This document shows, one piece after another, positions 6,728 through 56,747 of a stretch of 58,801 bases of DNA (positions are counted from its first letter, which is position 1; each line of letters starts with the position of its first letter). The notes under the pieces were generated by a model. It did no database searches and was not told the DNA's origin. It saw only the letters and a list, made by a program, of their open reading frames with translations. The translations under genes and the position numbers were made by a program. This stretch comes from a virus, in IMG/VR virus record IMGVR_UViG_3300028453_000003. The stretch is one strand, 5' to 3'.

Positions 6728-6742
6728 ATCATATCACCTTTT

Positions 6743-15655: not shown

Positions 15656-15657
15656 AC

Positions 15658-16215: not shown

Positions 16216-16231
16216 CGTTTATCATCTCCAT

Positions 16232-19200
16232 TTAATATCCTATTGCTCCATTTGGTGAGTTGTATTCTATCATTGCTTTGTCTACTGATTGTCTTATTCT
16301 TGCATCTAAATCTTGAACTCCTATGATAGTGGAGTTTGACATATCAATATTTACAGTTGGGGCAAATATTTTTGGGGTTTGTTGATTAACCTTGTCATTT
16401 GCTTGAACATTCTTTGCATTTGCTTGAAGTTGCTCATTACTTACTCCTTTTTGGGCAAGTACACCTACATCAGTTCGTAGATTTTGGTAGGAATTGTAAC
16501 CATTAGTCAATGCCCTACCTAATGCTTGACCACCCTTGTACATCATTTGTTTTCCACTATCAAGGGCTAACATTGAATATTCCATCTCTTTGGCGATTGT
16601 ACGAGCGATATTTGCTGGAGAACCCACATTTAAACCCCCACTTGACTCAAAACCATCAGAGAGTTGTTTTCCTAATGCTTGACCTTTATAATAAAAATCA
16701 TCTTTCCTATTATCCAACTCTTGAAGTGCATAATCCATCTCCTTAACAACAATAGACTTCAAGGATGGTTTGTGATTCTTGAAACCATCAACCATTTTCT
16801 GACCTAATGTTTTACCACCATTGTTAAAGGTAGCATACCTTGATTGTATCTCACTAACACCTTTCGCAAGTACACTAACAACTGCACTACCAAAACTTGC
16901 ACTACCAGTCCTAAAACCAGTAGGCAAAGCATTACCTAACCTTGTACTTGCACTCTGAACCCTTGCACTTGCACTACTAATAGTAGTGATAAACAAGTTA
17001 AGTTTCACTTTCAATTGAGCAATAGCATTAGCAGTCTGTTGAATAGCAGTAGTATTGCCACCATTTCCAGTAGACAATCCACCAAGTTTAGTGGCAAAGT
17101 CCATAACATCCTTAACATCATTATACAACTGGTCTAACTTACTCTTCAAGCCCATACCAATTGCACCACTAATAGAACCACCTAATGCCCCACCAATATT
17201 GCCTAAAGCATCAGATGTACCCATTGCATTATTCAACTTTTGAATAGCAGTAAACAATGGTGGCAATTGAGTAGCAACTGTTGTAATGGCAGTTATCTTT
17301 TCAGTTTTAAGAGTTTCAGAGAAATCCAAATCATTGAAATCAGAGATGAATGTTTGTATTGTCGGCAAAATGTCTTGCACAAGAGTAGTCAATCCATCCT
17401 TACCACCACTTAACAAACGATTTCCCCATTCAACAAGTTGAACTCCAAATATAGTAAGGTCTACAACTAACAAGTAAGGAATTGCTTGTGCCAATACTTG
17501 CAATACATTGCCTATCAGTTTGATGGTTTCTGCACCTTGATTAATGTTCTCTTCACCTAAAGCACTTGCACTTGCACCTAATAATGCTATCGCTCCAAGT
17601 GGAACTATCAACATTGTAATCGCTTCTGCAACAAGTAACAAGGTTGTAGCAATACCCACTACCATAGGAATAGCAACCACATCGGCAGTTAAACCAAGAA
17701 TACCACTTATCGCAACGAAACCAACAATAAACCAAGCAATAGTATCATCACTTGCAATATAATTAAGAGCATCTGCAAACATATGGATAGTGGCAATTCC
17801 ACTCTCAATATTCTCTTGTTGCCAATTCTGAACTGCACCAATACTTGCAATAGCCAACAATGGTAAGTTAAGCAAGACAATCGCTTCGGCTATTAAACCC
17901 ATAGCAATAGCCATACCAGTAGCCAACTTAACTGCACCTTTACCTATGCTTTCCATTGCAGAGTCTGGAACTTTACCAAGAGCATAACTGAAAACAAGCA
18001 TTGCTCCACCAAGCAAGGCAAACCATATACCAAATTCCTTGATGAACTCAATACCACTATTGAACTGTGGTTTTAAAGACTCATAAGTGTAACCAATAGC
18101 ACTAATCAAGAGTATTGCCTCTTCAATCAAAGCCCAAGCCATAGCCAAAGCAACTGCAAACTCAACAAAAACCCTTGCCATCTTACCAAGATTCTTACCA
18201 AGTTTACCCCATTCAGACTTAAAGTTTTCCTTAAAACCACCAGTATTCATAGTCTTGCCAACATCACCAGTTCCCTCTGCGATGCCACCACCAACATCCT
18301 TAAGTTTACCAAACATACCAAGCAAAGGCTTCGCAATCTTATAAACACCATAAGCAGTAATACCAAAAGTAATCATCCAAGAAACCCAATCCTCCAAGAA
18401 ATTACCAAATTGAGTAGCCTTACCATCCTTATCAATCAAACCAATAGCCTTTGCAAATTCAGTAATCTTCGGTGTAACCCAACCGATACCTTTTTCCAAT
18501 GCTTCAAGCATAGTTACGAAGTTACCCAAAACATCAGTAATCAATGGTTCGATTACACCAAATGCTCTTGCAAGATCAATGGATAATTTAACTTCCAAAG
18601 TGGTGATTGCATCACTTAAATTAGTTATGTCTTTAGCAGTCTTGTCATAACCTCTCTCTTGAGCGATTTGGAGCAATGCTTTCAACATACCCTCTTTATC
18701 AGATTGTTCACCACTCCATAATCCAGTTGCTTTAAGTTCTTCTGCACCGATACCGACTTCTTTTAACCTACGAAGTTCACCATCAAGTGCATCGTTAATA
18801 GCGAGTATACTGTCCTCTTGGCTTCTGCCTTGTTTCACGAACTCTGAACCATAAATAGCCATTACTTCAGTCAAGTCGCCAAGACTTTGTTGTTGCACTT
18901 TATATTTTGTTGCAGTTTCCAAAGCATTAGCACCAACAACAGTCATATCAAGTTTTTTGTACTGCTTCTGCATCCCATTTAATTGGTTGGTGAAGTCTTG
19001 AGTTGCTTTTGCATTCATACCCATTCTTTTTGCAAAGTAGTCTTTTTGGGATTCTGCATTAATATGGCTCATAGTTTTATCGTAGACATCCATCAATTCG
19101 TTGAATCCCCACATTGTTAATGCCATTGAACCGATTCTTCTTGGCAAGTAACCCATCTTATCCAAATCATTGACCTTTGTAGCATTTCGTTGCCTAACTG

Positions 19201-20296
19201 CACCTTGCTCATTAAGTAAAGCAGTTTCCTCACCAATAAGACTTGCTTTCTCTTTTTCAAGAGTTAATTCTTCTTTGATAAATGCTAAACTTTTTTCTCT
19301 TTGACCAGTAAGATTAGATAAAATACCTCTTTCTTCATTAAGAAGAGTAAGCATTTGACTTTCTGCATTTTTAGAAGCCATAAACATTTCATTAGAAATT
19401 TTAATCTGTTCATTAATCCTAATGCGAGAAGCCAATTCTTCACCAAGCCCATTTTGGAATAATTTTTCAGTAGCAACCATCTCTTCTTCATATGTGAGAT
19501 TTTTCTTAATTTCACTACCATTTCTTATAATTTCTTTTCCAACCCTACTTAATGCAGTTGCTCTCTTTTGAGTAGTTATCACTTGCCTTTCAAGTTCTTC
19601 ACTTAATCGCACTAATGAAGAAAAACTTTTAGTAACTGCCGAATCAAATGTCCTTTCGGATTTTGCTCTTTGATTGATAAAGTTAAGACTTGCTTGTAAT
19701 AGTTCATTTTCGTGGATAAAATATTTAGCCACATTACTGCCACTAACTTCCATTTCTTTCATAAAAGCAGTATTTTTCTGAACTAATCCTTGTGTTTCTC
19801 TCCATTTTGCATTGATTTGTCCTATTTCTGAATTGTAAATCCCAAGAATATCATAATGTTCAGATAATTGCCCATTCATAGCAGTCCATAATTGAACTAA
19901 TGGCTCTGTTCCACTTGTGATTGCACTTATTTCAGTCTTGACTTCCCTAATTCTCTGTACTGTTTGAGTAGTTGTTTCATTGACTTTTTGTTTGATAGCA
20001 TCGATTTCTCTACGAAGTTCAAGGATTTCTGACCTTAATGTTTCAATCCCTTGAGTATTGGCAAATTCGGTGTTCATTGTGGCAATGTCTTGCTTGATTA
20101 CTGCAATGTCATCTTTCAATGTCTTTAAACCATTCAAAGCACCATTGAAATTCCAATTACCACCACCCATCTCCATCATACTCTTCATAGAGCCACTTAA
20201 TTCAGATAACTGGGTAGTAACCTTTGCAATACCACTTTCAAAAGGAGTAGTATCTATTGTAACCTTACCATCTACTGTAAATGCTTCTACTGACAT
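16232..20296 (-). CDS. Tail tape measure protein
   Basis: About 1350 aa with a coiled-coil N-terminal third and a hydrophobic, Gly/Ala-rich centre. It has the canonical position after the chaperone genes. ATG at 20296; the track starts at TTG 20308. Confidence 0.85.
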   Translation of the reverse strand: MSVEAFTVDGKVTIDTTPFESGIAKVTTQLSELSGSMKSMMEMGGGNWNFNGALNGLKTLKDDIAVIKQDIATMNTEFANTQGIETLRSEILELRREIDAIKQKVNETTTQTVQRIREVKTEISAITSGTEPLVQLWTAMNGQLSEHYDILGIYNSEIGQINAKWRETQGLVQKNTAFMKEMEVSGSNVAKYFIHENELLQASLNFINQRAKSERTFDSAVTKSFSSLVRLSEELERQVITTQKRATALSRVGKEIIRNGSEIKKNLTYEEEMVATEKLFQNGLGEELASRIRINEQIKISNEMFMASKNAESQMLTLLNEERGILSNLTGQREKSLAFIKEELTLEKEKASLIGEETALLNEQGAVRQRNATKVNDLDKMGYLPRRIGSMALTMWGFNELMDVYDKTMSHINAESQKDYFAKRMGMNAKATQDFTNQLNGMQKQYKKLDMTVVGANALETATKYKVQQQSLGDLTEVMAIYGSEFVKQGRSQEDSILAINDALDGELRRLKEVGIGAEELKATGLWSGEQSDKEGMLKALLQIAQERGYDKTAKDITNLSDAITTLEVKLSIDLARAFGVIEPLITDVLGNFVTMLEALEKGIGWVTPKITEFAKAIGLIDKDGKATQFGNFLEDWVSWMITFGITAYGVYKIAKPLLGMFGKLKDVGGGIAEGTGDVGKTMNTGGFKENFKSEWGKLGKNLGKMARVFVEFAVALAMAWALIEEAILLISAIGYTYESLKPQFNSGIEFIKEFGIWFALLGGAMLVFSYALGKVPDSAMESIGKGAVKLATGMAIAMGLIAEAIVLLNLPLLAIASIGAVQNWQQENIESGIATIHMFADALNYIASDDTIAWFIVGFVAISGILGLTADVVAIPMVVGIATTLLLVAEAITMLIVPLGAIALLGASASALGEENINQGAETIKLIGNVLQVLAQAIPYLLVVDLTIFGVQLVEWGNRLLSGGKDGLTTLVQDILPTIQTFISDFNDLDFSETLKTEKITAITTVATQLPPLFTAIQKLNNAMGTSDALGNIGGALGGSISGAIGMGLKSKLDQLYNDVKDVMDFATKLGGLSTGNGGNTTAIQQTANAIAQLKVKLNLFITTISSASARVQSASTRLGNALPTGFRTGSASFGSAVVSVLAKGVSEIQSRYATFNNGGKTLGQKMVDGFKNHKPSLKSIVVKEMDYALQELDNRKDDFYYKGQALGKQLSDGFESSGGLNVGSPANIARTIAKEMEYSMLALDSGKQMMYKGGQALGRALTNGYNSYQNLRTDVGVLAQKGVSNEQLQANAKNVQANDKVNQQTPKIFAPTVNIDMSNSTIIGVQDLDARIRQSVDKAMIEYNSPNGAIGY

Positions 20297-28825: not shown

Positions 28826-30172
28826 TCACCTATTCTGATACCTTTGTTGCTCTCTTGTGATATTCCTAACATCGTGGTTTACATTCGTGGAAGAGGATGG
28901 GTTCTTCACAATACTTGTTCTGCCATTCCTATCCAAATCCTCTTGACCCTTTTTCACAATCGGCTTATGCAAACTATTAGGGTCAGTTTCACCATCCAAT
29001 AATTGGTCTTCCTCATAATCATCCATTTCAAATTCAAGATGACATTCACCTTTGATGTTCTGCAACTCAAGTTCCTTATCAAAGAGTTTCTTAATATACT
29101 TTGCAACCCAATCCCGATTATACTCCAAGAACAAGACCCTACCAGTAGTCTTACTATCCAATTGAATATCGGCAGTAGCCCTATTTGAAGATTCAGAACT
29201 GAATACTGCCTCTGGAGTATTCAAAGCAATGTAAACTTCTTTTTCAAAGTATTTAATGTAATCTTGAATTTGTGGCAAACTACCCCCCTTAAGGAGTTCA
29301 ACTTCAATACCATAAGGCAATATCAAACAACCTTTCATATGGTAATTATTAACCACTTCTGCAACTTCATCTCTTGCATCTTCATCCAAGTAAGTGTTCA
29401 TCTTGTTTTCATTTCCCATTGTAACTGATATAATGTTACTGTTCTTATATACAGTCAATGGCATCTGCTCTCTTAACACTCTCTTGTAGTAGATTGGTTC
29501 TAATGCACCACCAATCAAGGCATTGGCTTTACCATCTCTCTCTAAATATTTCATATGTTGGATTTCATCAAGTTCATAACTGATTTCCATTTCAGTCAAA
29601 TCCTCTTCCAACTCATCAAACTTCTTACGAAGCCAACCCTTATTAGTTCTTGCATTTTTCTGAATCACTTGCTTGTAACCACAAACATCACCATTCTCAT
29701 CAAAGATAACCTTGATACGATAATCAACACCATCATAAGCCAAGAATGTAGGCTTGATATGGTTCTCAACTATACGAAAATGTTGGAACACATCACCATC
29801 CACGAAACCTTTCCAAAGGATATTATCAATAATGTTATCCAAATCCCATATTTCAACCATATCTTCCAAATGCTTAACTGCCTTATCATTATCACCAGTA
29901 ATATACCACTTGGTATTGGTCTTTGTCATCAAATCCATCAAGATACCTTGTGCTTGACTATCGTGAACACTTGCAAATCGGCGATTCTTAACAGTATTAC
30001 GAACCCTTGATGGAGTAGCCTCATACAAATCAACCTTATCACATTTACGATAGTGGTCTTTCCTATCATCAAGACCAACTTCATAAACCTCATTAGGATG
30101 ACTATTCAACAATACCTTACTTGCTTTCGCAATCCTTTCATAAATTCCTATAACTCTCACCTCCTCCATCAT
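28826..30172 (-). CDS. Portal protein
   Basis: 448 aa, immediately downstream of TerL with a 1-nt overlap. Confidence 0.7.
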   Translation of the reverse strand: MMEEVRVIGIYERIAKASKVLLNSHPNEVYEVGLDDRKDHYRKCDKVDLYEATPSRVRNTVKNRRFASVHDSQAQGILMDLMTKTNTKWYITGDNDKAVKHLEDMVEIWDLDNIIDNILWKGFVDGDVFQHFRIVENHIKPTFLAYDGVDYRIKVIFDENGDVCGYKQVIQKNARTNKGWLRKKFDELEEDLTEMEISYELDEIQHMKYLERDGKANALIGGALEPIYYKRVLREQMPLTVYKNSNIISVTMGNENKMNTYLDEDARDEVAEVVNNYHMKGCLILPYGIEVELLKGGSLPQIQDYIKYFEKEVYIALNTPEAVFSSESSNRATADIQLDSKTTGRVLFLEYNRDWVAKYIKKLFDKELELQNIKGECHLEFEMDDYEEDQLLDGETDPNSLHKPIVKKGQEDLDRNGRTSIVKNPSSSTNVNHDVRNITREQQRYQNR

Positions 30173-31392
30173 CAGTAACTGTAAATCCTCACACTATCTT
30201 TATACTGCCTATCGGCACTTAATATGCCTACTGTTCCATAAATACCATAACCAAGAGCATCCATACTATGGTCATCGTGTTTAATCGGCTTATCTATATC
30301 ATTACCCTCTTTATCCTTTTGATAACAATAAGATTCAATCTCACGAATTGTATTGGTGCATCGCTCTGCAATATGCAAAGTGCAAGATTTAACTGCCTCA
30401 ATCTTCGCATCAACATTCTTAATACCACCAATCGCATTGAAACCATAATCACAGAACTCTTGTATACGATCTGGCTCTGCACTATCGCAGTATACTGTAT
30501 CAACTTGATTAGGATTGAGATTGTATTTCCTTAACAGTTTAATGCACTCTGCAATGAACTGATGGTTAATAAGGTTTCTTTCATAGACTTCATCAATGAC
30601 ATAACACTCACCATCAAGCCAACCTAAAAGCAAGAAACAACTTGGATTATTGAAACCAAAGTCGCAACAACCAGTATAATACTCAAAACCTTTTGAGGAC
30701 TCTTTAATATCCCAATGTTGATATATTAAGCCACCACTATCTTGCCAAAGCCCTAAAGTGAGCCTAACATAGTTATCCCAGTCAAATTTCTTCCTTTCCT
30801 CTGCCATCTTGATATACTCTTCACCAACAAAACTATTATCAGTATAATGAAAATGGATAATCTCAATCTTCGGATCATCACGATGCAAATGAAACCTCTT
30901 ATAAATCCAATGAGCCTTTGTAGATGGAGTAATCACAAGTAAAAGTTGCCCATAATCTTTCATACTGGCTTTACCCCTTACCCTTGACTCCAACTCATTA
31001 AAAACATCTTTAGAAATCTCCTCTGCTTGTTCCACATACACAAAATCAAGGTTTAAACTCCTAATCTTCTGAGGGTCATCTAAACCCTTAAAGGAGATAG
31101 TACTCCCATTTAGGAATGTGATAACACCTTCTGACTTGTTTTCCTTATAAGGTATCTGATAATTGTCCAATGCTTCCCTAATTTCTAACCATGAAGTCAT
31201 TCTCAAACTTGGTAAGGTTTGCCTAAACACAGCCACACGAGCATTTTTATGAGTTAAAGCGTACAGAATTGTCTTGTGTATCGCATAGAGAGTCTTGCCA
31301 GAACCCGCCGCTCCTTCTACGAGCAGATATTTGTGTTTATCGTTAATGTACTTCGCTTGTTTCTCTGTTAACTTCCATTCGATGGTTGGCAT
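30172..31392 (-). CDS. terL: Terminase large subunit
   Basis: Walker A VEGAAGSGKT, Walker B LDFVYVEQAEE, and a C-terminal nuclease region with DHSMDALGYG. Confidence 0.9.
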   Translation of the reverse strand: MPTIEWKLTEKQAKYINDKHKYLLVEGAAGSGKTLYAIHKTILYALTHKNARVAVFRQTLPSLRMTSWLEIREALDNYQIPYKENKSEGVITFLNGSTISFKGLDDPQKIRSLNLDFVYVEQAEEISKDVFNELESRVRGKASMKDYGQLLLVITPSTKAHWIYKRFHLHRDDPKIEIIHFHYTDNSFVGEEYIKMAEERKKFDWDNYVRLTLGLWQDSGGLIYQHWDIKESSKGFEYYTGCCDFGFNNPSCFLLLGWLDGECYVIDEVYERNLINHQFIAECIKLLRKYNLNPNQVDTVYCDSAEPDRIQEFCDYGFNAIGGIKNVDAKIEAVKSCTLHIAERCTNTIREIESYCYQKDKEGNDIDKPIKHDDHSMDALGYGIYGTVGILSADRQYKDSVRIYSY

Positions 31393-31667: not shown

Positions 31668-32114
31668 TTAATCATCCTTTTCATCTTCTTCCAAAAGTTT
31701 TCTCTCTTTCTCTCCCAACTCATAAGGAGATTTAGCACTACTAATCTTTAATTCAAAGTTATTATCAGTAGCCAAAGCCATCTGCTCTCTCTTACCAAAA
31801 CGATTAGGATACTTCCTCTCCAAAATCCAAGCCGAACTGACCCAATTGCCTTGATCTATCGCATTAGTGTAAATCACATTAAGTATATCCATTTCGGCTT
31901 GTGCCTCTGCCTCTGTAACCCTATCATAGAACTGCTTATAAGGCTCAAGACCTTGCTCACCTTTCTTCTTCCAAGCATAAAAAGTAGTTTTATGAATGCC
32001 AACACTCTGACAAACAGTAGTAATATAATTGCCTTTCAACACCCCCTCAACAATCTTATCACATATAGTCTTATTCAACTTTTGAGGATGTGTTCCACCT
32101 TTAAGTCTACCCAT
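31668..32114 (-). CDS. terS: Terminase small subunit
   Basis: N-terminal HTH (TTVCQSVGIHKTTFYAWKKKGEQG), 148 aa, upstream of terL. Confidence 0.7.
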   Translation of the reverse strand: MGRLKGGTHPQKLNKTICDKIVEGVLKGNYITTVCQSVGIHKTTFYAWKKKGEQGLEPYKQFYDRVTEAEAQAEMDILNVIYTNAIDQGNWVSSAWILERKYPNRFGKREQMALATDNNFELKISSAKSPYELGEKERKLLEEDEKDD

Positions 32115-32774: not shown

Positions 32775-33059
32775 TCATTTATGTCCTTTAATCATCAACT
32801 TCCTATTCGGAATGTTATGCCTATATGACTTATGCCTTGTCTTAATCTTACTATATCGGATATGCACTCCTCTCCTTGCCTCTGATGGAGCAGAGAATGG
32901 GATCACATTATCCACCTTTTCCAAGCCACAGTATTGTACTGCACTTGACAAGACCAAACCACACTTGTTGCAATAGGTTTCCTCACGAACATAATCCCTT
33001 ACAAACTCTGTATTATTGCATATAGGACAACATTTGGTTTCCTTTTCGGTAAAAATCAT
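32775..33059 (-). CDS. TFIIB/TFB-type Zn-ribbon protein lacking cyclin domains
   Basis: CCPICNNTEFVRDYVREETYCNKCGLVL matches the TFB N-terminal ribbon pattern CPxCG..(x)..D...GE.VC..CGLV. It is followed by only 50 basic residues. Confidence 0.7.
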   Translation of the reverse strand: MIFTEKETKCCPICNNTEFVRDYVREETYCNKCGLVLSSAVQYCGLEKVDNVIPFSAPSEARRGVHIRYSKIKTRHKSYRHNIPNRKLMIKGHK

Positions 33060-33148
33060 CAGTAAAACATCTCCTTATCGTGTAGTGTGGAAGAAACATA
33101 ACTCCCAAATTGGTTCTACTATATATTTTAAACTTGAAAGTATATAAT

Positions 33149-33250
33149 ACAGTTGAAAAAGTATGTTTGCAAGTGTAATAATAAATCGTGATAAATCATG
33201 AACAATTACAGTTTTACAGTTGAAAATGTACTATTGCAAGTGTAAAAATA
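33149..33250. repeat. Direct repeat, 2 copies of about 35 bp, 67-bp period
   Basis: acagttgaaaaagtatgtttgcaagtgtaataata (33149-33183) and acagttgaaaatgtactattgcaagtgtaaaaata (33216-33250). Confidence 0.8.
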
Positions 33251-33424
33251 GTGAAAAAGAAGCCCAAAGAAGCAGTATTCGTATACCAACGAACAATGGT
33301 GTCAACCCCAAATGTAGACAAATTTCAAGCCCAAAGAAACAATAAAATAAAAAAAGAAGCCAAAAAACCATATGTTTGGTAAACAATAAAACAATTCGTA
33401 AAAACACGAATGAATAATTTCGAC

Positions 33425-33524
33425 CAACTTTGTCAAAAAATCGCAGATGTTTGTATGAAAAACCACCAACTTTGTCAAAAAAATGCAGATGTTTGTATGA
33501 AAAACCACCAACTTTGCAAAAAAC
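33425..33524. repeat. Tandem repeat, 42-bp unit, 2.4 copies
   Basis: caactttgtcaaaaaa(t)cgcagatgtttgtatgaaaaaccac occurs twice, followed by a partial third copy. Confidence 0.9.
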
Positions 33525-33958
33525 AAAAACACGAAAACAGATAAGAACACTCCAAAACAGAAAAGAAGCCCAAAGAAGAAAAATCCGATTTTTCAATGAA
33601 AAAATAGGTATCTCAACACACAAAAACATAACTTAACCGAGTAAAGCACACAATGAAACAATAAAATAACATTAGAAATATTATTTTATTACATAGTAGC
33701 CATATATAGCAGAGGAAGAAACATAAAATAAAAAAAATACTATAATAATATATAATAACAGAAACTATATAAAACAATCGCACACCATAACCCCCCACAT
33801 ACACCAATGAAAACCCACAATGAAAAAACCCCCAAAAAAACCGAAGAAACATAAAAACCAAAAACCAACCAAACTCCACAGAGCCACACCCCTACCTACT
33901 TTTAAAATTTTTAGGTACTTAACATAAAAACTTTTTAGAATTGCTTATTTTTCTTATT

Positions 33959-33976
33959 GGGTGCCTTTTATTAGTT
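33959..33976 (-). promoter_or_regulatory. Promoter-like TATA+GGCAC motif facing the late genes
   Basis: Minus sense reads ctaataaaaggcaccc, which matches the motif found upstream of the AT-rich cassettes. Confidence 0.35.
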
Positions 33977-34312
33977 ATTCTATTCTTATATATCTTAAAA
34001 AATTGTAGTATATTGTCTTAATATACTATACTGTACAGATAATAGTTAAATGTCTTATCATTACTTTTCATTATTATGTTATTGTCTTTTTGTCCGTGTT
34101 GATCCCTCAATAATTTTTTCTTATTAATTTCCTTATTGTTTTTTTTGTTTTTTGAGTTGTGTATTAATTTAGTATTTTTTTATTTTATTTTGTTGTGTTG
34201 TTGTGTGTTTAATTGTTTTTTTGTTGTTAATATAACAATTGTTATAAAATAGGTTTAAAAAAAAGAGAAAAAATAAACTTTTATATTTGATCTATTAAAT
34301 GAGATAATTTAT

Positions 34313-34627
34313 TTAATTTCCAAAAATTGAAATAATATCTTTTTGAATGTCATAAAATGTTTTTTGGGTTAAACCATAACATTTAATTTTATATTGGGTT
34401 TCGTTTTCGATGTCGTCGATTTTTATGATAATTTCTAAATCATTATAATAAATGTTTATTAATTTAAAGTTTCTATGGTTTCCCATATCCTCTTTTATTT
34501 GATTTAATCCAATTTGAGAGGCTAACCATTTTAAATGATTGTAAGCCTCTTTTATATTGATTCTTTCAAATGATTCGTATTTATATTTGGTTATTGGTTC
34601 AATTTCAATAATTTTTATGTATACCAT
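34313..34627 (-). CDS. AT-rich cassette protein 1, unknown function
   Basis: ATG at 34627 follows the conserved leader ttgagagttgaaaaaa. The track's MKK prefix is a TTG artefact. A T-rich terminator lies downstream. Confidence 0.6.
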   Translation of the reverse strand: MVYIKIIEIEPITKYKYESFERINIKEAYNHLKWLASQIGLNQIKEDMGNHRNFKLINIYYNDLEIIIKIDDIENETQYKIKCYGLTQKTFYDIQKDIISIFGN

Positions 34628-34680
34628 TTTTTTCAACTCTCAATAGTTTTTTAGTTTAAGTGCCTTTTTAAATTGTAACA
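34628..34680 (-). promoter_or_regulatory. Conserved promoter-leader module, copy 1
   Basis: Minus sense reads tgttacaatttaaaaaggcacttaaactaaaaaactattgagagttgaaaaaaATG. Confidence 0.6.
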
Positions 34681-34731
34681 TTTGAAAAAGACAAAAGAAA
34701 AAATAATAAGAATTTTAAAGTAATAATTACT

Positions 34732-34950
34732 TTAAAAATCTTTTAGTAAATTGTTTATGTTTTCATTACAAAAGTATTTTAATTGATCCTTATCATATTT
34801 TAATATTTTTGTAAAATCTGTATTTTTATTTAATTGAAAAAGAATTATTATTATATCTCTAATTTTATTTTGTGTATTGTTATTATCTAATAGGAATAAG
34901 TTTAATAAAATTCTTAATTCAATTAGATTTATTAATAATTCTTTTTTCAT
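34732..34950 (-). CDS. AT-rich cassette protein 2b, unknown function
   Basis: 72 aa, with its ATG overlapping the upstream TGA (ATGA). Confidence 0.5.
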   Translation of the reverse strand: MKKELLINLIELRILLNLFLLDNNNTQNKIRDIIIILFQLNKNTDFTKILKYDKDQLKYFCNENINNLLKDF

Positions 34951-35723
34951 ATTAACACAACATTATTTTTATATTGTAATGTTTTAAGGTAGTTTTCTAT
35001 ACTGTCCTCAAAATCATATAATAAAATAGTTTTGTTGTTATATTCAACATATGGATCAACATAATTATAAACCTCAGTATTTTCATAACATTCATAATTT
35101 AAATTGAAAATTAAATCATTACATTTATTATCATTTTGTATTATGATATTATCAAATAAGAATGATAATTCATTACATTCATATTTTTCAATAGGTTTAT
35201 TTATCCAATAGTTATAATCATTTGATAAAAAAGATATAAATCCATCATAAGAACTATTTTTTTTATGAATATAGTTTTCCATATTTTCAAAAGATAATAC
35301 ATAATTTTTTATTAGATTTAATGTTGTATAATTAGTTTTTAGGAATAATCCATTTTTATCAGTTCTGTAATTGTAATACTTAGGACTGTCTATATAACTG
35401 TCTTTTAATTCTAATAAAAATTGAGGATTTTCTATAATATCATTAGGTAGTAAATCTTTTATTAATTTTAAATATAAATTGCTAAATTCTTTTGATATAT
35501 CATTTTTATAATTTTCAAAATTTTCAAAATTATAATTAACTTCAATATCATTTTCATTTAAAAAAGAATATTTATCTAACAATATATTTTTGTCCTCAAC
35601 TTCATAATCAATAAATTGATCAGAATTACAAAACATACTTTCATAAAATCCATAAAAAACATTTATATATAGTTCTTTTGTTATGTTTTCATTTTCTTTA
35701 TTTTCAAAATTATATTTATTCAT
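34947..35723 (-). CDS. AT-rich cassette protein 2a, acidic N/Y/D/E-rich, unknown function
   Basis: ATG at 35723 follows the conserved leader. 258 aa. Confidence 0.6.
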   Translation of the reverse strand: MNKYNFENKENENITKELYINVFYGFYESMFCNSDQFIDYEVEDKNILLDKYSFLNENDIEVNYNFENFENYKNDISKEFSNLYLKLIKDLLPNDIIENPQFLLELKDSYIDSPKYYNYRTDKNGLFLKTNYTTLNLIKNYVLSFENMENYIHKKNSSYDGFISFLSNDYNYWINKPIEKYECNELSFLFDNIIIQNDNKCNDLIFNLNYECYENTEVYNYVDPYVEYNNKTILLYDFEDSIENYLKTLQYKNNVVLI

Positions 35724-35780
35724 TTTTTTCAACTCTCAAAATTTTTATAGTAAAAAGTGCCTTTTAAGTCTTTAACAACT
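35724..35780 (-). promoter_or_regulatory. Conserved promoter-leader module, copy 2
   Basis: Minus sense reads gttgttaaagacttaaaaggcactttttactataaaaattttgagagttgaaaaaaATG. Confidence 0.6.
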
Positions 35781-35928
35781 AAAAAAGACAAAAGAAAAAA
35801 TAAAAAATAATTAGAATAAAAATTCTAATTCAAATAATTTAAAAATAACTTTACAAATGAAAAAATAAAAAATAAAAAATAAAATTAATGTTGTATTATT
35901 GCTTATCATTTTTTCAAAATCCTTTTTT

Positions 35929-36327
35929 TTATTCAAATGTTAATTGATATTTATTTGAGGATAAGACAAAAACATTATTAAATTGTAAATTGCTTTTGTT
36001 TTCATAATTTTTCTTTAATTCTTTTTCTATAAATCTATAAAAATTAAAGAATTGTTTTTCATTTAGATAAATATCAATACCATATAATGACTTATCAAAA
36101 TACTCTTTATTTATTATGTATTGATCTTTTGAATAAATTGTTAAATCTAATCGTAATCTATAAAAATCAAAATGTAAAGTAAACCTTTTAAATTTAGGAT
36201 TTTCAAAAATTGCTTTTATTTGATTTTCATTACATTTTAAAGGATTTTCTAATTCATAAGAATATACATAATTTTCTTTATTTTTGCTTATGTTTTCAAT
36301 ACATAACTTTTTTAATTGTGTTTTCAT
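35929..36327 (-). CDS. AT-rich cassette protein 3, unknown function
   Basis: ATG at 36327 follows the conserved leader. Confidence 0.6.
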   Translation of the reverse strand: MKTQLKKLCIENISKNKENYVYSYELENPLKCNENQIKAIFENPKFKRFTLHFDFYRLRLDLTIYSKDQYIINKEYFDKSLYGIDIYLNEKQFFNFYRFIEKELKKNYENKSNLQFNNVFVLSSNKYQLTFE

Positions 36328-36378
36328 TTTTTCCAACTCTCAATAGCTTTTAATTTAAGTGCCTTATTGATCTGTAAA
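36328..36378 (-). promoter_or_regulatory. Conserved promoter-leader module, copy 3
   Basis: Minus sense reads tttacagatcaataaggcacttaaattaaaagctattgagagttggaaaaaATG. Confidence 0.6.
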
Positions 36379-36508
36379 AATCTAAATAAGACAAAAGAAA
36401 AAAAGATAAAAACAATTAAATTTTAATTGCTTTATCTATATAAAATAAAATTAGTTTATTGTTTTAGGTAGTAACCTTTAATTTAATTAAAGTTTTACAA
36501 TGAATACT

Positions 36509-37057
36509 TTATTTTTTGAATAAATTGTAAATATCATTTGTACTATTGAAAATATAATTTTCCATAAGTTTATCTAATGAAAATTTAGTATTTATCATAT
36601 ACCATGATAAACCTAAATGATCTATACATAAAATATATAAATCGTCTTTAGAATTATAAAGTATATCATAATTGCAATAATCCTTAAATAAACATAAATC
36701 ATTTTCATTAATAATAAAGTATTGAAAATATTCTTTATAAGTTAAACTTATAAAATCATAATAATGATTGTGTAACATTAAATTTAAATCGTCCTCAGAT
36801 AATTCATTTAAATCAGTATTTTCAAAATCATAAATATAAGAACTGTAATTCTCAAAAAATTCAATTATAGTTTCATTATCATAATTTTGTATAAATTCAT
36901 AACTTAAATTATCAATATTTGAATTTTGTAAATCATAAGGTATTAAATTTATATCAAAATAATCGATAAAATTGCCTAAACTTAATACATTTTCTTTTAG
37001 TTCGTCTTTACTTATTTTCATTATTTTAGTTTTTAAGTAATATTTTTCATTTTCCAT
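36509..37057 (-). CDS. AT-rich cassette protein 4, strongly acidic, unknown function
   Basis: ATG at 37057 follows the conserved leader. The protein is D/E/N/Y-rich with no Arg. Confidence 0.6.
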   Translation of the reverse strand: MENEKYYLKTKIMKISKDELKENVLSLGNFIDYFDINLIPYDLQNSNIDNLSYEFIQNYDNETIIEFFENYSSYIYDFENTDLNELSEDDLNLMLHNHYYDFISLTYKEYFQYFIINENDLCLFKDYCNYDILYNSKDDLYILCIDHLGLSWYMINTKFSLDKLMENYIFNSTNDIYNLFKK

Positions 37058-37111
37058 TTTTTCAACTCTCAAAAGGTTTATAATAAAAAAGTGCTTTATT
37101 TGTCTGTAACA
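37058..37111 (-). promoter_or_regulatory. Conserved promoter-leader module, copy 4
   Basis: Minus sense reads gttacagacaaataaagcacttttttattataaaccttttgagagttgaaaaaATG. Confidence 0.6.
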
Positions 37112-37282
37112 ACATAATAAAACATATGAATAATAATATATGTTTAAAAAATTGAGAATTGAGAGTAAAAAAGAAAATTTTATAATTTTTTAGTTACTAT
37201 AGACAACAATTTATAAAAATTGGATTAGATCCACAATACTATAAAAATTATTAAAAATTTTTGTATTGTGTGCCTTTTTATT

Positions 37283-37302
37283 CGATTAATAATTATTAAT
37301 CG
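37283..37302. promoter_or_regulatory. 20-bp perfect palindrome
   Basis: cgattaataattattaatcg, immediately next to a TATA+GGCAC-like motif (37268-37284, minus sense). Confidence 0.5.
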
Positions 37303-37508
37303 TTACATATAGTATATATGAACTAATATATAAATATTTCTATTTTTATTTTGAATTTACAACAGCTAAAAAATTTTAGGATCAACATATAAAAAATACT
37401 TAACATAGTTAAGTTAATTGTTTTTGTATTGTGTGTGCCTATTAGTAAAAAAAGGTAGTGGATCAATTTCATATAATCATTAATCCTTTTTCAGTTCAGC
37501 TCAAAATA

Positions 37509-37646
37509 AAAAAAGTTTGTACCCAGGCCCTACCCCAAGCCGACCCCCACAGTTTTGGCAGAGCAGAGTACCCAAACCCTACCCACCAGTAAAAAAAAAA
37601 AAAGTTTGTACCCAAACCCTACCAATTATATGTGTGTACCCTTGCT
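37509..37646. repeat. G+C-rich island with three copies of GTACCCARRCCCTACC, two of them followed by A runs
   Basis: Copies at 37519-37535, 37568-37584 and 37608-37623. Four C-tracts lie within 37522-37548 (a G4 motif on the minus strand). A13 run at 37591-37603. Confidence 0.8.
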
Positions 37647-37782
37647 TAAAACTATAAGGATGATGATAATACTCTTGCTTTAAAATAATAATTAATGGTA
37701 AAAGTAGTAGTTTAATTAATCAGTAATGCAATATAATGAAAGCAGTTAATAAAAAAAGTAAATATAGGTAACTTGATATAGG

Positions 37783-38124
37783 CTACCTAATTATAAATTG
37801 TGGTTTTTCTATGATTAGGCAGTCGAGTCCCCCCCATTCTTGTTTGACATATGCTCTGCCGATGGGGTTTTCTTTTCTACCATGAGGCATTATTTTTTTG
37901 GTTATGATGTCGCCATCAGTTAGTATGTTTATTGTGATGACTCCATCTTCTTGTCGGTGGGATTCTATCCATCTGTCTGTTACTGTTAATGGGACTGGGA
38001 TTATTAATGCTTTTTTCCCTATCCATTCTCTTTTTGTGTATATGATTGGGTTTCCTCCCATATATTTGACTCTTCGGAATTCGTATTTCTCGAATTTGAG
38101 TTTTAATGTTATTTCATTTTGCAT
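37783..38124 (-). CDS. Small DNA-binding protein candidate (AbrB/DUF2080-like)
   Basis: The ATG at 38124 (MQNEITLK) is preceded by agagagtatgataaa. TKREWIGKKALIIPVP resembles the DUF2080/AbrB-type strand motif. The upstream part of the track ORF is a repeat array. Confidence 0.4.
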   Translation of the reverse strand: MQNEITLKLKFEKYEFRRVKYMGGNPIIYTKREWIGKKALIIPVPLTVTDRWIESHRQEDGVITINILTDGDIITKKIMPHGRKENPIGRAYVKQEWGGLDCLIIEKPQFIIR

Positions 38125-38145
38125 TTTATCATACTCTCTTTTTTT

Positions 38146-38265
38146 GGTAATCGGTTTGAAAATCAAAAGCAGAAAATCGATTTGAAATTCGGAACTTGCA
38201 ATCGGTTTCAAAATCGGAACTTGCAAATTGGAATGAAAATCAGAAATCGATTTGAAAATCAGAGG
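38146..38265. promoter_or_regulatory. Iteron/operator array (five 17-nt cores, two 10-bp palindromes)
   Basis: Cores of the form aatcg[ga]ttt[gc]aaaat[ct] start at 38149, 38174, 38200 and 38245, with a degenerate copy at 38225. aaatcgattt occurs at 38174-38183 and 38244-38253. ggaacttgcaa occurs twice. Confidence 0.65.
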
Positions 38266-38273
38266 TAGAGAAC

Positions 38274-38383
38274 CTTTATGCCAGTAGCACACAGTAAATT
38301 GTTACAGATATAAAGGCACTTTTATTGAGAGTTGAAAAAAATTCGTGTTAATGTACCCCTTATTGTATGCTACTGGCATAAAG
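38274..38383. promoter_or_regulatory. Candidate invertible promoter segment: 16-bp perfect IRs flanking a reversed copy of the promoter-leader module
   Basis: ctttatgccagtagca (38274-38289) / tgctactggcataaag (38368-38383). The 78-bp spacer carries ttgttacagatataaaggcacttttattgagagttgaaaaaaatt on the plus strand. Confidence 0.55.
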
Positions 38384-38406
38384 ATTCCCCCCCCATTTTG
38401 GAAATT

Positions 38407-38688
38407 CTATTCCATCAGTTCTATCCAGTATTTGACTCGTTCCAATTTTGGTATTCTTGGCTCTGAAGCCATATCCCAACAACATTGCAGGAACAAGTGA
38501 TCTGTTTCGTAGTCTTCCATAAATTCTTCGCTATGAGGACATAATAGTCCATCATTGTATCTGTCTAATGATTCTGCTAACAAGTTGATGGTTGGTTCAT
38601 CATCATCAATAGTGTCTAAATCGATTTCAATTTCAATCATATCATTGTCATCGATTTTGCTTGTTAGTCTATATTTTTGTATATTCAT
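38407..38688 (-). CDS. Acidic small protein, unknown function
   Basis: ATG at 38688 follows taggtgga. The track start at 38700 is GTG. Confidence 0.5.
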   Translation of the reverse strand: MNIQKYRLTSKIDDNDMIEIEIDLDTIDDDEPTINLLAESLDRYNDGLLCPHSEEFMEDYETDHLFLQCCWDMASEPRIPKLERVKYWIELME

Positions 38689-38703
38689 TTGAAAATCCAC
38701 CTA

Positions 38704-45236: not shown

Positions 45237-45971
45237 TCATTCAATATCTGCAAAGTATTGGTGGCATTTCACAAGTCTATTCTGATTTACTGTTATCAAC
45301 TGCCAACTTGGTGGCTCTAATTGTAAGTATTGTTGGTCTGGGTAACCATCATAACCTAAAAAATGCCCACAATACCCATAAAATATTTGCTTATAACCAG
45401 TAGGAAACCTTTTAAACTCCGACCACCAAATATTTTTATGATTATGACCCTCAAGGTACATATCTGCAACAATATGTTCAGTATTTCTCTCCAATTTCCC
45501 CATAGCCAATGGTTTGGTCTTTGATGAACCTTTACCATGTCTACAAAAAATACTAAAGTCAAAATCATTAATAGAAAATGTATCTAAATTCTGATTGCAA
45601 TAAGTAATCCCCAATTCTCTACACATATCTTTAACAATATTGAAACCAAATTCCTTGTTTAAACGATATTCGTGATTACCAATACAATAACAAACAATAT
45701 CCTCTTTAAATGGTTTGATATTATTAATAAAATATTCTCTCTGCTCTTCAACAGTACAATCTTGCCCATAAGCACTATCCCCAACATTCTTACTTGCAAC
45801 TTCCAACATATCACCAAGCAAATAGATTCGGCGATTTTTAAGAGGTTTTATAGTTTTAAGCATTTGCTTAAACAAATCCTTATTAAAAGTAGGATTCCCT
45901 ATATGCAAATCTGAAATAGGAATGATATTCACTACTGTTTTTGAGTTCAAAGCATATTGATCCAACACCAT
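45237..45971 (-). CDS. Calcineurin-like metallophosphoesterase
   Basis: Motifs DLHIGN, GDMLE, GNHEY, RHGKG and GHNH in canonical order. Confidence 0.8.
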   Translation of the reverse strand: MVLDQYALNSKTVVNIIPISDLHIGNPTFNKDLFKQMLKTIKPLKNRRIYLLGDMLEVASKNVGDSAYGQDCTVEEQREYFINNIKPFKEDIVCYCIGNHEYRLNKEFGFNIVKDMCRELGITYCNQNLDTFSINDFDFSIFCRHGKGSSKTKPLAMGKLERNTEHIVADMYLEGHNHKNIWWSEFKRFPTGYKQIFYGYCGHFLGYDGYPDQQYLQLEPPSWQLITVNQNRLVKCHQYFADIE

Positions 45972-46615
45972 TATATATCACCATCTAATTTTTTCCATTC
46001 AAATCCTTGTTTTTTAACTTCTTTTTCTAAATCTTCTAAATTAACCCTTGAAATATGTTTATGGTAAATTTTCCCATTATTATCTCTTAAGTTAATAACA
46101 TATCTCCAAAGGAATCCTTGTTTGCAACTATTACATTTAACTGTTGAAACTCTATAATATCCAGTAGTGTTCGTGGAATTATGTTTATTTGTACAAGATT
46201 TAGTCATCTTTATCTTATCTTCTATGCTCCAAATTTTTCCAAAATTAGGATGCTTTTCACCACTCATAGCATTACTTATTTTGTCTTTCGCTTCTTTAGA
46301 ATGGTGTTTCCCATACATTGGATGAAGTTCCCCACATCTCCCATAACAATGATGCTCTTTTCCATATTTTGCATCATTTTTTCTATGAAATTTATCGTGG
46401 ACATCTTTTGGAACACATTGTAAATTTTGGATTCGGTTGTCTGTTTTATTGTAATTAATATGGTGAATTACACAATTTTTTGGAATTGGTTTTCCATAAT
46501 GTTCTTCCCATATCAAACGATGTAATAACTGGTTATTATTCCCTTGCTTTTGTGAACTAATTTTATAATACCCATAATTATTCAATGTAGCATTTCCATA
46601 TTTCGTTTCAATCAA
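45971..46615 (-). CDS. HNH homing endonuclease with NUMOD-like repeats
   Basis: HHINYNKTDNRIQNLQCVPKDVHDKFH, plus GKEHHCYG..GKHHSKEAKDKIS..GEKHPNFG. Paralog of 46938-47441. Confidence 0.75.
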   Translation of the reverse strand: MIETKYGNATLNNYGYYKISSQKQGNNNQLLHRLIWEEHYGKPIPKNCVIHHINYNKTDNRIQNLQCVPKDVHDKFHRKNDAKYGKEHHCYGRCGELHPMYGKHHSKEAKDKISNAMSGEKHPNFGKIWSIEDKIKMTKSCTNKHNSTNTTGYYRVSTVKCNSCKQGFLWRYVINLRDNNGKIYHKHISRVNLEDLEKEVKKQGFEWKKLDGDI

Positions 46616-55893: not shown

Positions 55894-55941
55894 TAAGCAA
55901 GTTGGGAATCGAACCCAAATCCAAGACACCAGTCTTTGCTT
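55894..55941 (-). ncRNA. tRNA top-half-like minihelix A
   Basis: Minus sense: AAGCAAA / 16-nt connector / TTGGG-TTCGATT-CCCAA / CTTGCTT-A. The T-arm is canonical and there is no D or anticodon arm. Confidence 0.5.
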
Positions 55942-56698: not shown

Positions 56699-56747
56699 GA
56701 GCGATGGTGGGAATCGAACCCACCAAGACAATCACCAGTTAATCGCT
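56699..56747 (-). ncRNA. tRNA top-half-like minihelix B
   Basis: Minus sense: AGCGATT / AACTGGTGATTGTCTTG / GTGGG-TTCGATT-CCCAC / CATCGCT-C. Confidence 0.5.

Follow-up and report, generated by a model that had tools for sequence, protein, structure and literature searches.

The stretch of viral DNA analysed here in full (58,801 nt; hereafter the window) harbors an extremely AT-rich island at positions 34230-37160, in which the five open reading frames (ORFs) listed in an earlier note were all found on the minus strand, with G+C contents between 0.14 and 0.23. Read along the coding strand, they comprise cassette genes E (36509-37057; 182 aa, G+C 0.17), D (35929-36327; 132 aa, G+C 0.17, basic product, variably present among relatives), C (34947-35723; 258 aa, G+C 0.18), B (34732-34950; 72 aa, G+C 0.14, basic product), which overlaps the stop codon of C (ATGA), and A (34313-34627; 104 aa, G+C 0.23), whose place is occupied by other genes in relatives. 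The two largest products were strongly acidic (pI 4.37 for C and 4.20 for E), in agreement with the same note. A sixth gene, overlooked at that time, encodes a 32-aa hydrophobic peptide (MISNNTTLILFFIFYFFICKVIFKLFELEFLF; 35811-35909, minus strand) and is kept in five related loci (L010, L023, L068, L070 and L071). Comparison of the five products rejected the possibility that they were paralogues of one another.

The most conserved cassette gene was C, with 46 homologue clusters and a dN/dS of approximately 0.25; together with B (dN/dS 0.1-0.3), it is under purifying selection. The C family is very large (3185 representative clusters), its distant members match PHROG 37559 and 8431, both without an assigned function, and the confident AF2 model of C (pLDDT 89.6) matched uncharacterised phage proteins in BFVD (E-values of 2e-7 and weaker). 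The 40 homologue clusters of E all belonged to close relatives (61-78% identity), and this gene evolves fast (dN/dS approximately 0.5-0.7, up to approximately 1); its AF2 model was moderate (pLDDT 70). Gene A showed weak homology (E=2e-5) to a 95-aa gene from a 30%-G+C array in the related locus L004.

Judged from its genes, this is a temperate tailed archaeal virus, whose host most likely belongs to the Methanobacteriales of the gut or rumen. Terminase, portal, integrase and TFIIB zinc-ribbon ORFs were identified in the window, which has a single coding strand throughout, and the closest GenBank record was Caudoviricetes sp. vir249 (host Methanobacteriales), with 44% TerL identity. A TerL search against one genome per species retrieved no relative, no match emerged when the region was compared with GenBank phages by blastn, and no tRNA genes were found in the window. 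No relationship was detectable between a C39-like peptidase and the pseudomurein endoisopeptidase of vir249. The array was described in the earlier note as lying early in the genome; its position is instead mid-genome, between a replication/early block on one side and the packaging genes on the other, all encoded on the minus strand. The sole recombinase in the window is a weakly scoring tyrosine integrase located 20 kb from the array.

Between 33.9 and 37.5 kb, the minus strand is organised in four units, each starting with a conserved block of approximately 75-100 nt that consists of a putative stem-loop, a T-run, a GTTACAGA..AATAAGGCAC box and a TTGAGAGTTGAAAAAAATG leader. The four copies of this module, all in direct orientation, aligned over 114 columns with a mean column identity of 80%, with TTGAGAGTTG and GCAC invariant and a TTCTTTTGTCTT block ahead of three of the four, as stated in the earlier note. 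Copy 1 (37054-37129, minus strand; nhmmer E=5e-17) heads E as the first unit of the array, with box GTTACAGACAAATAAAGCAC, leader TTGAGAGTTGAAAAAATG and a diverged T-block. Copy 2 (36325-36399, minus strand), carrying TTCTTTTGTCTT, TTTACAGATCAATAAGGCAC and TTGAGAGTTGGAAAAAATG, heads D and is immediately preceded by the stem-loop and T-run of the E unit. Copy 3 (35721-35795, minus strand; recognised by alignment, nhmmer E=1.5e-18) heads the unit formed by C and B, and the stem-loop ahead of it coincides with the 3' end of the 32-aa peptide gene. Copy 4 (34625-34699, minus strand) heads A and follows a hairpin (TAAAGTAATTATTACTTTA) and a T-run. Modules 2, 3 and 4 each come after an AT-rich stem-loop with a T-run behind it; the shuffle z-scores are only -1.7 and -2.9. 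The leader 16-mer had five zero-mismatch sites and one two-mismatch site, with 0.57 expected at up to two mismatches. Homologous module copies were detected in 9 relatives, and in one of them (L023) the Shine-Dalgarno (SD)-like part is changed to AAAGGTGA and GAGAGGTAA, as would be expected of a ribosome-binding site. Based on a scan of public viral and metagenome contigs, multi-copy matches to the leader 19-mer were restricted to this virus group, and single matches outside it look like chance. Each module contains two A/T-rich stretches, either of which could be the TATA box; one of these choices would yield leaderless mRNAs and make the SD-like element pointless, which counts against a promoter-leader model.

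Repeats and conserved elements surround the array on both sides. The downstream end is marked by a perfect 16-bp palindrome (TATAACAATTGTTATA; 34231-34246), conserved in every array type, among them those of L001 and L010, of which a second copy adjoins the integrase gene (57605-57620). The AT-rich downstream non-coding flank (33100-34230) contains one more AATAAAAGGCAC box (33961-33971, minus strand) and, past it, tandem repeats of 42-nt units (33423-33506) ahead of the TFIIB-zinc-ribbon gene. The upstream non-coding flank (37130-37782) consists of C-rich plus-strand repeats (GTACCCAAACCCTACC; 37519-37623) followed by AT-rich DNA, and holds extra copies of the promoter box (AATAAAAAGGCAC at 37270-37280, minus strand). 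It is bordered by a conserved 113-aa gene, F04 (37783-38124, minus strand), which had no family match and forms the upstream limit of the variable site. Between this gene and a long hairpin lie tandem GATTTTCAAAYCGATT-type repeats (38140-38265), kept in L001, L023, L028 and L068-L072.

The hairpin (38260-38394, minus strand) begins 20 nt past the stop codon of the gene at 38407-38700, with a 28-bp stem (arms at 38270-38297 and 38360-38387) and a sense-strand fold of -55 kcal/mol. Its loop carries a fifth module copy, in reversed orientation (38297-38341, plus strand) and outside the range covered by the earlier note, so that on the gene-sense strand the loop is complementary to the cassette leaders. 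The same architecture was found in seven relatives (L068, L069, L072, L028, L001, L066 and L071), and the loops match the leader of each lineage, four leader types corresponding to four loop types. In lineages whose leader differs, the hairpin differs with it and its loop matches that leader, which suggests an anti-leader regulator: the element may be a virus-encoded trans-acting RNA whose loop pairs with the leader and ribosome-binding site shared by the cassette mRNAs. Comparison of sense and antisense fold energies favored the sense strand in only three of the eight loci. Covariation among window-type hairpins revealed no double changes because their stems are nearly identical, no known RNA family was found in Rfam for 32.9-38.8 kb, and no reversed motif copy was present in the 20 kb examined of L012, an unrelated 128-kb virus contig with its own per-gene motif.

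Arrays were found at this site in 13 related viral loci, bordered by the conserved 113-aa gene and by the TFIIB-zinc-ribbon gene upstream of the terminase; each of them differed in gene content or order. Homology between relatives stops exactly at the start codons that follow the modules. In the window, gene D sits between a module ATG and the 32-aa peptide gene; L010, L023 and L025 have no D in the stretch from E to C. By position, the module in L023 would drive the peptide gene directly, and in L010 the latter comes after another gene, itself placed before E. In L028, B belongs to a different unit, upstream of C, and D-like, E and B genes are reordered among relatives. Three unrelated cassette bodies were found behind the module that follows C and B, where identity was 79-90% before the ATG and 61-65% after it (background 60 ± 4%); for module 4 of the window compared with L010, L025 and L027, the values were 79-89% and 61-64%. 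Further cassette bodies behind the same leader were present in metagenome contigs. The array of L001 has a wholly different leader (AAAGGTGATGCAATATG), multi-copy only within its own contig, and almost no genes in common with the others, indicating that at least one replacement of a whole array also happened. The units resemble autonomous cassettes, and the proposal that cassettes are acquired or shuffled at the shared module is supported by close relatives, in which content and order vary with breakpoints at the module.

The locus is probably a hyperplastic accessory-gene site, that is, an array of moron-like units sharing a module that would serve both as expression signal and as homology for recombination. 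Each unit would be built from an AT-rich stem-loop with an oligo-T block (a putative archaeal terminator), an A/T-rich TATA-like box in a conserved GTTACAGA..GGCAC frame (the predicted promoter), a leader of approximately 17 nt with a weak Shine-Dalgarno-like GAGAGTTGA and an A7 spacer, and one to three small ORFs. Repeated in direct orientation, the block would provide all units with the same expression signal, and its approximately 75-100 nt would offer the homology for recombination events that insert, delete, replace or reorder cassette bodies; we infer such recombination because breakpoints fall at the modules.

The compositional contrast noticed by eye was evident once computed: the island contained 17.4% G+C against 34.7% in the remaining window, the lowest 2.9-kb window reached 17.2% (outside the island, median 35.0%, sd 2.3%), and all 300-nt windows below 22% G+C lay within 33.9-37.5 kb, the sole very AT-rich stretch. 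GC3 was 0.10-0.22 in the five ORFs and approximately 0.38 in core genes of the same genome. Strand skews, inspected for transcription-associated bias, were similar in the island and in the rest of the genome. In sister lineages, arrays with the same cassette families at the same locus had approximately 30%, 24%, 17% and 12% G+C. Thus, one family (f8) varied from 0.30 in L004 to 0.25 in L071 and 0.16 in L028, another (f14) from 0.32 in L004 to 0.18 in L069, and a third (f12) between 0.13 in L001 and 0.17 in L070. Synonymous divergence of C and B was similar to that of the adjacent core gene (dS of 0.31 for C and 0.30 for the flanking core gene, window vs. L010).

These data bear on whether the island could be recently acquired foreign DNA, brought by a mobile element or from an AT-rich donor, as the composition jump had been taken to suggest. 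The G+C boundaries are sharp, the same site in L001 holds an unrelated gene set of 12% G+C with its own leader, and GATC is avoided in the core (34 observed vs. 162 expected), with no such avoidance in the island (11 observed vs. 4.8 expected), as if both had separate histories. However, the same families occur in sister arrays at G+C values from 0.30 through 0.24 and 0.17 to 0.12, L004 holds a G+C-richer version of the window module, at least five relatives keep C, B and E in synteny, with a dS of C near that of the core gene, another virus (L012) encodes a distant homologue of C at 27% G+C, and no transposase or integrase gene was recognised among the island ORFs. Recent import is therefore very unlikely, and low G+C appears as an array-wide property without an import signature, given that the same families span this range in sisters. 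The extreme AT-richness is best described, from the sequences compared, as a lineage-specific state of the whole array rather than the mark of a foreign donor. A force specific to the locus, mutational or selective, may have brought the array to 12-17% G+C, with chromatin exclusion and easy melting as possible selective reasons. A further reading, which treats the ORFs as spurious and the region as non-coding AT-rich DNA serving, for example, as a replication origin or packaging site, would fit the 0.6-1.1 kb of repeat-rich non-coding DNA in which the array is set, just upstream of the terminase genes, and the presence of only an 18-nt tandem repeat at the site in one relative (L003/L066 contig). 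Nevertheless, open frames of 72-258 codons are very improbable by chance at 17% G+C, and the dN/dS of C and B well below 1, dozens of protein-level homologues and the confident fold prediction for C already refute this reading, which retains practically no probability; the flanks could hold an origin or pac site.

The function of the products was also considered, together with the nature of the reversed module. Searches of the five products, the 32-aa peptide and the 113-aa gene product against Pfam, PHROGs, PADLOC and NCBIfam gave nothing significant, in line with the earlier remark that no family could be recognised. The speculation that C and E counter host restriction or CRISPR, as DNA mimics or otherwise, for which acidity is the only evidence, gained nothing from these searches. 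It would agree with their pI of 4.2-4.4 and large D+E excess, with the location of their genes in a hypervariable region, as described for accessory host-interaction genes of MSTV1-like viruses (PMC11375127), with the fast evolution of E, and with the strong restriction-site avoidance of the core genome, which indicates that restriction pressure is real. On the other side, neither ArdA nor any family of the four databases was matched, sequence-profile searches of PDB produced one weak match for C (a chlorophyll-binding protein, E=0.033) and none for E, PDB fold searches with both models found no match, acidity is partly due to AT-rich codon usage (N, D, E, K, Y, I), and D and B are basic. Without sequence or fold membership in DNA-mimic families (ArdA, Ocr and similar), C and E are quite unlikely to act in this way; the products are most likely host-interaction factors. 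As for the segment at 38270-38387, a reversed module within 28-nt inverted repeats could instead be an inverton or a backward-firing promoter copy. Inverted repeats around a promoter-bearing segment of approximately 60 nt are the classic inverton layout, and the loops of window-type and L028 hairpins include the promoter box as well as the leader. Against this, a single orientation is shared by the window and each of the seven relatives that carry the element, the vicinity yielded no invertase gene, the L001-type loop is limited to the SD/leader part, stem mismatches are G-U on the gene-sense strand in three of four window-type copies, and in these copies folding of the sense strand gains 11-14 kcal/mol over that of the antisense strand. 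An inverton or a backward-firing promoter copy is accordingly unlikely. The joint proposal of an anti-leader RNA and a locus-specific G+C-lowering force is tentative, and we regard it as possible but doubtful.

The array of cassettes sharing a module resembles several known systems. Phage morons, a concept associated with Juhala and Hendrix, are extra genes with their own promoter and terminator and a composition unlike that of their neighbours; one relative may have a moron where another, collinear elsewhere, lacks it, and morons are considered beneficial to the lysogen or the infection. Here, whole units with predicted promoter and terminator likewise come and go among collinear relatives; unlike morons, the units form a contiguous array with one homologous regulatory block, and low G+C is array-wide and lineage-specific instead of a per-gene import signature. 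Integron cassettes, in which an adjacent IntI-type integrase with attI acts on promoterless cassettes that each end in an attC, were rejected as a model: the only recombinase is the tyrosine integrase 20 kb off, and the units have their own promoter-like box and a repeat at the 5' end. A close parallel is provided by the promoter-early stem-loop (PeSL) cassettes that T4-type phages carry in their hyperplastic regions (Arbiol et al. 2010, PMC2839356; Comeau et al. 2014, PMC4122927), where a shared terminator and promoter motif lies between small, mostly ORFan genes of a variable region, each gene is an autonomous unit, and breakpoints of indels and replacements fall in the motif. Likewise, a composite motif is repeated between genes of a variable region (four copies, and 9 relatives), with breakpoints in it (the D insertion, the three bodies behind one module, and the reordering of D-like, E and B genes). 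In contrast to PeSLs, a sigma-70 early promoter and a T4-type genome are replaced here by a TFIIB zinc-ribbon ORF and a Methanobacteriales-like TerL, the host being archaeal, with predicted TATA/BRE-type promoters and oligo-T termination; moreover, the motif continues across the translation leader as far as the ATG, the array has 12-17% G+C, and a reversed leader copy lies in a separate hairpin. By analogy, the region is best regarded as an archaeal counterpart of PeSL hyperplastic regions and phage morons, and not as a PeSL member.

PeSL-like motifs have been suggested for an archaeal virus, the haloarchaeal myovirus HGTV-1 (Sencilo et al. 2013, as cited in PMC3950731). According to the citing review, these motifs (a TATA-like box and an inverted repeat) precede ORFs, so that this archaeal tailed virus shares with ours a promoter-like motif before many small ORFs and a proposed role in regulation or shuffling, yet it belongs to another lineage, of a halophile, and is G+C-rich; the review does not mention a compositional island, comparison-based breakpoints or an anti-leader element. 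The MSTV1-like Methanobrevibacter viruses ('Usuviridae') are likewise tailed gut-methanogen viruses with a conserved structural module, and their hypervariable array of small genes was assigned to virus-host interaction, with a repeated module or extreme AT-richness apparently not described in that article (PMC11375127). The present virus is only distant kin of published Methanobacteriales viruses (44% TerL identity to vir249).

The viruses that infect gut and rumen methanogens have hardly been characterised, and this locus offers a testable case of how their accessory genes are regulated and exchanged. Mobile regulatory cassettes bounded by promoter and terminator, like those of T4-type phages, appear to be at work in archaeal viruses with eukaryote-like transcription signals as well. 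Homologous arrays at approximately 30, 24, 17 and 12% G+C within one virus group form a series in which mutational bias could be separated from selection; if a locus-specific force is at work, it would have remodelled proteins whose homologues are encoded at approximately 30% G+C in sister viruses. The leader and the anti-leader, which co-vary, form a candidate post-transcriptional master switch: if the anti-leader RNA exists, one molecule would gate translation of the whole reshuffled array and co-evolve with its leader. Finally, methanogen genetics could use the conserved module as a portable expression signal.

The minus strand carries all long ORFs of the window, among them the genes of a C39-like peptidase (264-989), the portal (28826-30172), the large and small terminases (30172-31392 and 31668-32114), a 94-aa TFIIB zinc ribbon protein with no other domain (32775-33059; Pfam E = 7.5e-8) and a weakly scoring tyrosine integrase (57655-58746). 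Further products are a DNA methylase, an ERCC4 nuclease and a primase-like zinc finger. The nearest GenBank record by large terminase (TerL) was Caudoviricetes sp. vir249 (44% identity; host Methanobacteriales, human gut), and closer relatives, with TerL identities of 84-96%, were uncultivated viral contigs; the source record of one related locus (L024) is labelled as a pig-gut metagenome. Based on the gene content, the nearest GenBank record and the viral-contig relatives, the window is therefore an essentially complete temperate tailed archaeal virus, which probably infects a member of the Methanobacteriales from the gut or rumen. Two fragments resembling tRNA 3' ends (~56700-56727 and ~55895-55930, both on the minus strand; ..GGTTCGATTCCCACC.. 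and ..GGTTCGATTCCCAAC..) were found in a non-coding stretch near the integrase gene, and no tRNA genes were detected in the window by ARAGORN; the fragments may be att-site remnants and could name integration targets. In three related loci, the genes of the small and large terminases are separated by one for a NUMOD3-type endonuclease (L010:6753-7475, L025:5475-6236 and L027:4549-5241); the window has none at that position, carrying an HNH/NUMOD3 gene at 45971-46615 instead.

The five AT-rich ORFs reported in the earlier note, named A (34313-34627), B (34732-34950), C (34947-35723), D (35929-36327) and E (36509-37057), all on the minus strand, were confirmed within an island (34230-37160) of 17.4% G+C, compared to 34.7% elsewhere in the window. 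Every 300-nt window below 22% G+C fell within 33.9-37.5 kb, and the GC3 of the ORFs was 0.10-0.22, with core genes of the same genomes near 0.38; strand skews of the island were ordinary. A gene for a 32-aa hydrophobic peptide (35811-35909, minus strand) had been overlooked. Homologues of C and E were found in 46 and 40 clusters, respectively, with dN/dS values of ~0.25 for C, 0.1-0.3 for B and 0.5-0.7 for E (~1 in some pairs), and the cassette ORFs are real genes. In a case of cassette decay, the 47-aa cassette ORF of L010 is interrupted in L025 by an in-frame stop (L025:1862-1910; TTAATATAAAATG).

The five products are not paralogous to one another, and none matched a family in Pfam, PHROGs, PADLOC or NCBIfam. 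A confident AlphaFold model was obtained for C (pLDDT 89.6), with no match in a PDB fold search (best E-value 0.15) and matches to uncharacterised phage proteins in BFVD (E 2e-7 to 7e-4); the model of E was moderate (pLDDT 70), and had no PDB match. Profile searches with C reached 3185 representative clusters, whose distant members matched PHROG 37559 and 8431, neither of known function, and had no match in Pfam. A role in counter-defence, possibly as DNA mimics, had been put forward as speculation on the grounds of individually promoted, acidic products placed early in the genome. The acidity was borne out for C and E (pI 4.37 and 4.20), the products of D and B being basic; the array lies mid-genome instead, directly upstream of the packaging genes, and the proposed role, which gained no support, is an unlikely possibility.

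The shared module heading each unit was also recovered: the four upstream regions aligned over 114 columns with a mean identity of 80%, and the leader 16-mer occurred five times without mismatch, plus one site with two mismatches (0.57 sites expected at ≤2 mismatches). On the minus strand, each unit reads as an AT-rich stem-loop (e.g. TAAAGTAATTATTACTTTA after B and GATAAAGCAATTAAAATTTAATTGTTTTTATC after E), a T-run containing the conserved block TTCTTTTGTCTT, a box of the form GTTACAGA-N-(A/T)ATAAGGCAC, a second A/T-rich stretch (form TTTACTATAAAAA) and the leader TTGAGAGTTGA, which an A6-7 spacer separates from the ATG. Oligo-T tracts are the known termination signal of archaea. In the related locus L023, AAAGGTGA or GAGAGGTAA stands in place of the GAGAGTTGA element; both are nearer to the canonical GGTGA Shine-Dalgarno found elsewhere in these genomes, suggesting that GAGAGTTGA is most likely a ribosome-binding site. 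In two module copies from relatives, an inserted hairpin of ~33 nt separates the A/T-rich stretch from the leader, which places the promoter upstream of the leader. We infer that the TATA element would be the AATAAGG box, ~44 nt before the ATG, giving a leader of ~17 nt; the CTATAAAA box of the module is an alternative candidate beside it. Extra, leaderless copies of the AATAAAAGGCAC box occur in both non-coding flanks; five of these boxes lie within 33.9-38.4 kb, where 0.06 would be expected. An unrelated large virus (L012, 128-kb contig; 1800-19300) encodes a 38%-identical homologue of C and packs 28 small genes into 20 kb, mostly headed by its own motif (T-run, AAACGGTTAAGTGGTGAT and ATG); repeated per-gene leader motifs may be common in these viruses.

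In 13 related-virus loci an array was found at the same site, bounded by a conserved 113-aa gene (window 37783-38124) and the TFIIB-zinc-ribbon gene, and no two arrays were alike. In transcription order, the window array reads E, D with the peptide, C with B, and A; that of L010, a 127-aa gene with the peptide, E, C with B, and genes of 47 and 91 aa; that of L023, two other genes, E, the peptide alone, and C with B; and that of L028, a 57-aa gene, families f8 and f9, E, genes of 175 and 118 aa with B, and C with genes of 115 and 76 aa. Further combinations were present in L068 to L071. The body of D fills precisely the interval from a module ATG to the peptide gene, and in L023 the D-heading module drives the peptide directly, without D. 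Behind the module that follows C and B, three unrelated bodies were found (in the window, in L010/L025 and in L027), with identities of 79-90% over the 100 nt leading up to the ATG and 61-65% beyond it, compared to a background of 60 ± 4% among unrelated island 100-mers; further bodies follow the same leader in metagenome contigs. Cassette shuffling at the shared module, as earlier proposed, was supported: content and order differ among relatives and breakpoints fall at the module.

The TFIIB-zinc-ribbon gene is the first past the array and was present in every related locus reaching that position; its product might modulate how host RNA polymerase is recruited. In L003/L066 (IMGVR_UViG_3300032038_000123; 55 kb, circular) the array site consists only of 18-nt tandem repeats, (TTTTCAGCTATGACTACC)n, in which the contig ends also meet, and an anti-leader hairpin of the L001 type (see below) is kept; the site is either truly empty or was collapsed in the assembly. 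Public contigs with cassette genes are mostly just 1-5 kb, and the long relatives L002, L005, L006 and L010 stop in the array or ~2 kb from it, consistent with assembly breakage at a repeated, polymorphic and very AT-rich locus.

The composition jump had been taken as a mark of acquisition, a reading contradicted by families that recur at ~30% to ~12% G+C in sister arrays. The array of L004 (TerL 90% identical) has ~30% G+C and a G+C-richer version of the window-type module (TTCTTTTGTCTTCTTTTGACTGTTAAAGGTCAAGAAGGCTC...GGAGATGTTAAAAATG), followed by L071 (~24%), the window type (~17%) and L001 (~12%). Across these arrays, G+C was 0.30, 0.25 and 0.16 for f8 (L004, L071 and L028), 0.32 and 0.18 for f14 (L004 and L069), and 0.13 and 0.17 for f12 (L001 and L070), while f15 and f13 are common to the L004 and L071 arrays. 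The shift in f8 affected all three codon positions, GC2 dropping from 0.26 to 0.09 among proteins 36% identical in sequence. Between the window and L010, dS was 0.31 for C and 0.30 for a flanking core gene, and C had the same composition across the six lineages compared; the array as a whole is therefore stably G+C-poor, to a degree that depends on the lineage, and this is no donor signature. Its cause may be relaxed selection with mutation biased towards AT, a mutational process local to the array, or selection favouring AT-rich DNA.

Short palindromes are strongly avoided in the core genome (GATC 34 observed vs. 162 expected; CATG 9, CTAG 4, AGCT 8 and ACGT 0, but TGCA 359). In the AT-rich arrays, by contrast, GATC exceeds expectation (11 vs. 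4.8 expected at 33900-37500 of the window; 34 vs. 3.0 in L001:3650-7900), mainly in the context TTGATCY. A perfect 16-bp palindrome, TATAACAATTGTTATA, occurs twice in the window: at the downstream array end (34231-34246), a position at which every array type retains it, and at 57605-57620, ~35 nt past the integrase stop codon and less than ~200 nt from a small plus-strand ORF (57247-57417). The palindrome might serve as a shared operator. Three repeat sets around the array, namely 6-8 tandem GATTTTCAAAYCGATT units before the 113-aa gene (38140-38265; conserved in relatives), G-run repeats (GGTAGGGTTTGGGTAC) on the coding strand (37519-37623) and 42-nt tandem repeats before the late genes (33423-33506), might act as iterons or operators, or belong to an origin or pac region.

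A fifth, reversed module copy (38297-38341, plus strand), outside the range first reported and overlooked there, lies in a hairpin that begins 20 nt past the stop codon of the gene at 38407-38700. Its 28-nt arms (38270-38297 and 38360-38387) enclose a 62-nt loop reading GTTACAGATATAAAGGCACTTTTATTGAGAGTTGAAAAAAA on the plus strand, so that the gene-sense strand is the complement of the cassette leaders; the sense-strand fold (-55 kcal/mol) leaves this anti-leader unpaired. A hairpin of this architecture was also found at the equivalent place in other loci, with the same arms in L068, L069 and L072. Arms differ in L028, whose loop copies its own module variant, in L001 and L066, and in L071, whose loop shares an exact reverse-complement 16-mer with one of its cassette leaders. 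The L001 loop contains ATTGCATTACCTTT, the sole such site in 19 kb and the complement (one G-U) of its leader AAAGGTGATGCAAT. When each loop was paired with its own leaders and compared to shuffled loops, duplex energies were -43 kcal/mol for the window (z = -9.2), -42.5 for L028 (z = -9.1), -21 for L001 (z = -3.4) and -27 for L071 (z = -3.1). L023 and L070 lack the hairpin.

A module copy in this position might be a promoter firing backwards, or the element might be an inverton; the latter is disfavoured by the uniform orientation, reversed in 7/7 relatives with the hairpin as in the window. In 3/4 window-type copies, the mismatched stem positions form G-U pairs on the sense strand. Over both alternatives we prefer, tentatively and as a rather doubtful possibility, a trans-acting anti-leader RNA, which would gate translation of the whole array.

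In T4-type phages, modular shuffling is mediated by promoter/stem-loop cassettes, PeSLs (PMC2839356, PMC4122927), and the array shows this pattern, in that breakpoints fall at the module and bodies are exchanged behind it. A similar mechanism is proposed for the haloarchaeal virus HGTV-1 (PMC3950731). No described counterpart was found for the array-wide drift to 12-17% G+C or for the co-varying anti-leader hairpin. The array is best regarded as the analogue, in an archaeal virus, of PeSL/moron hyperplastic regions.
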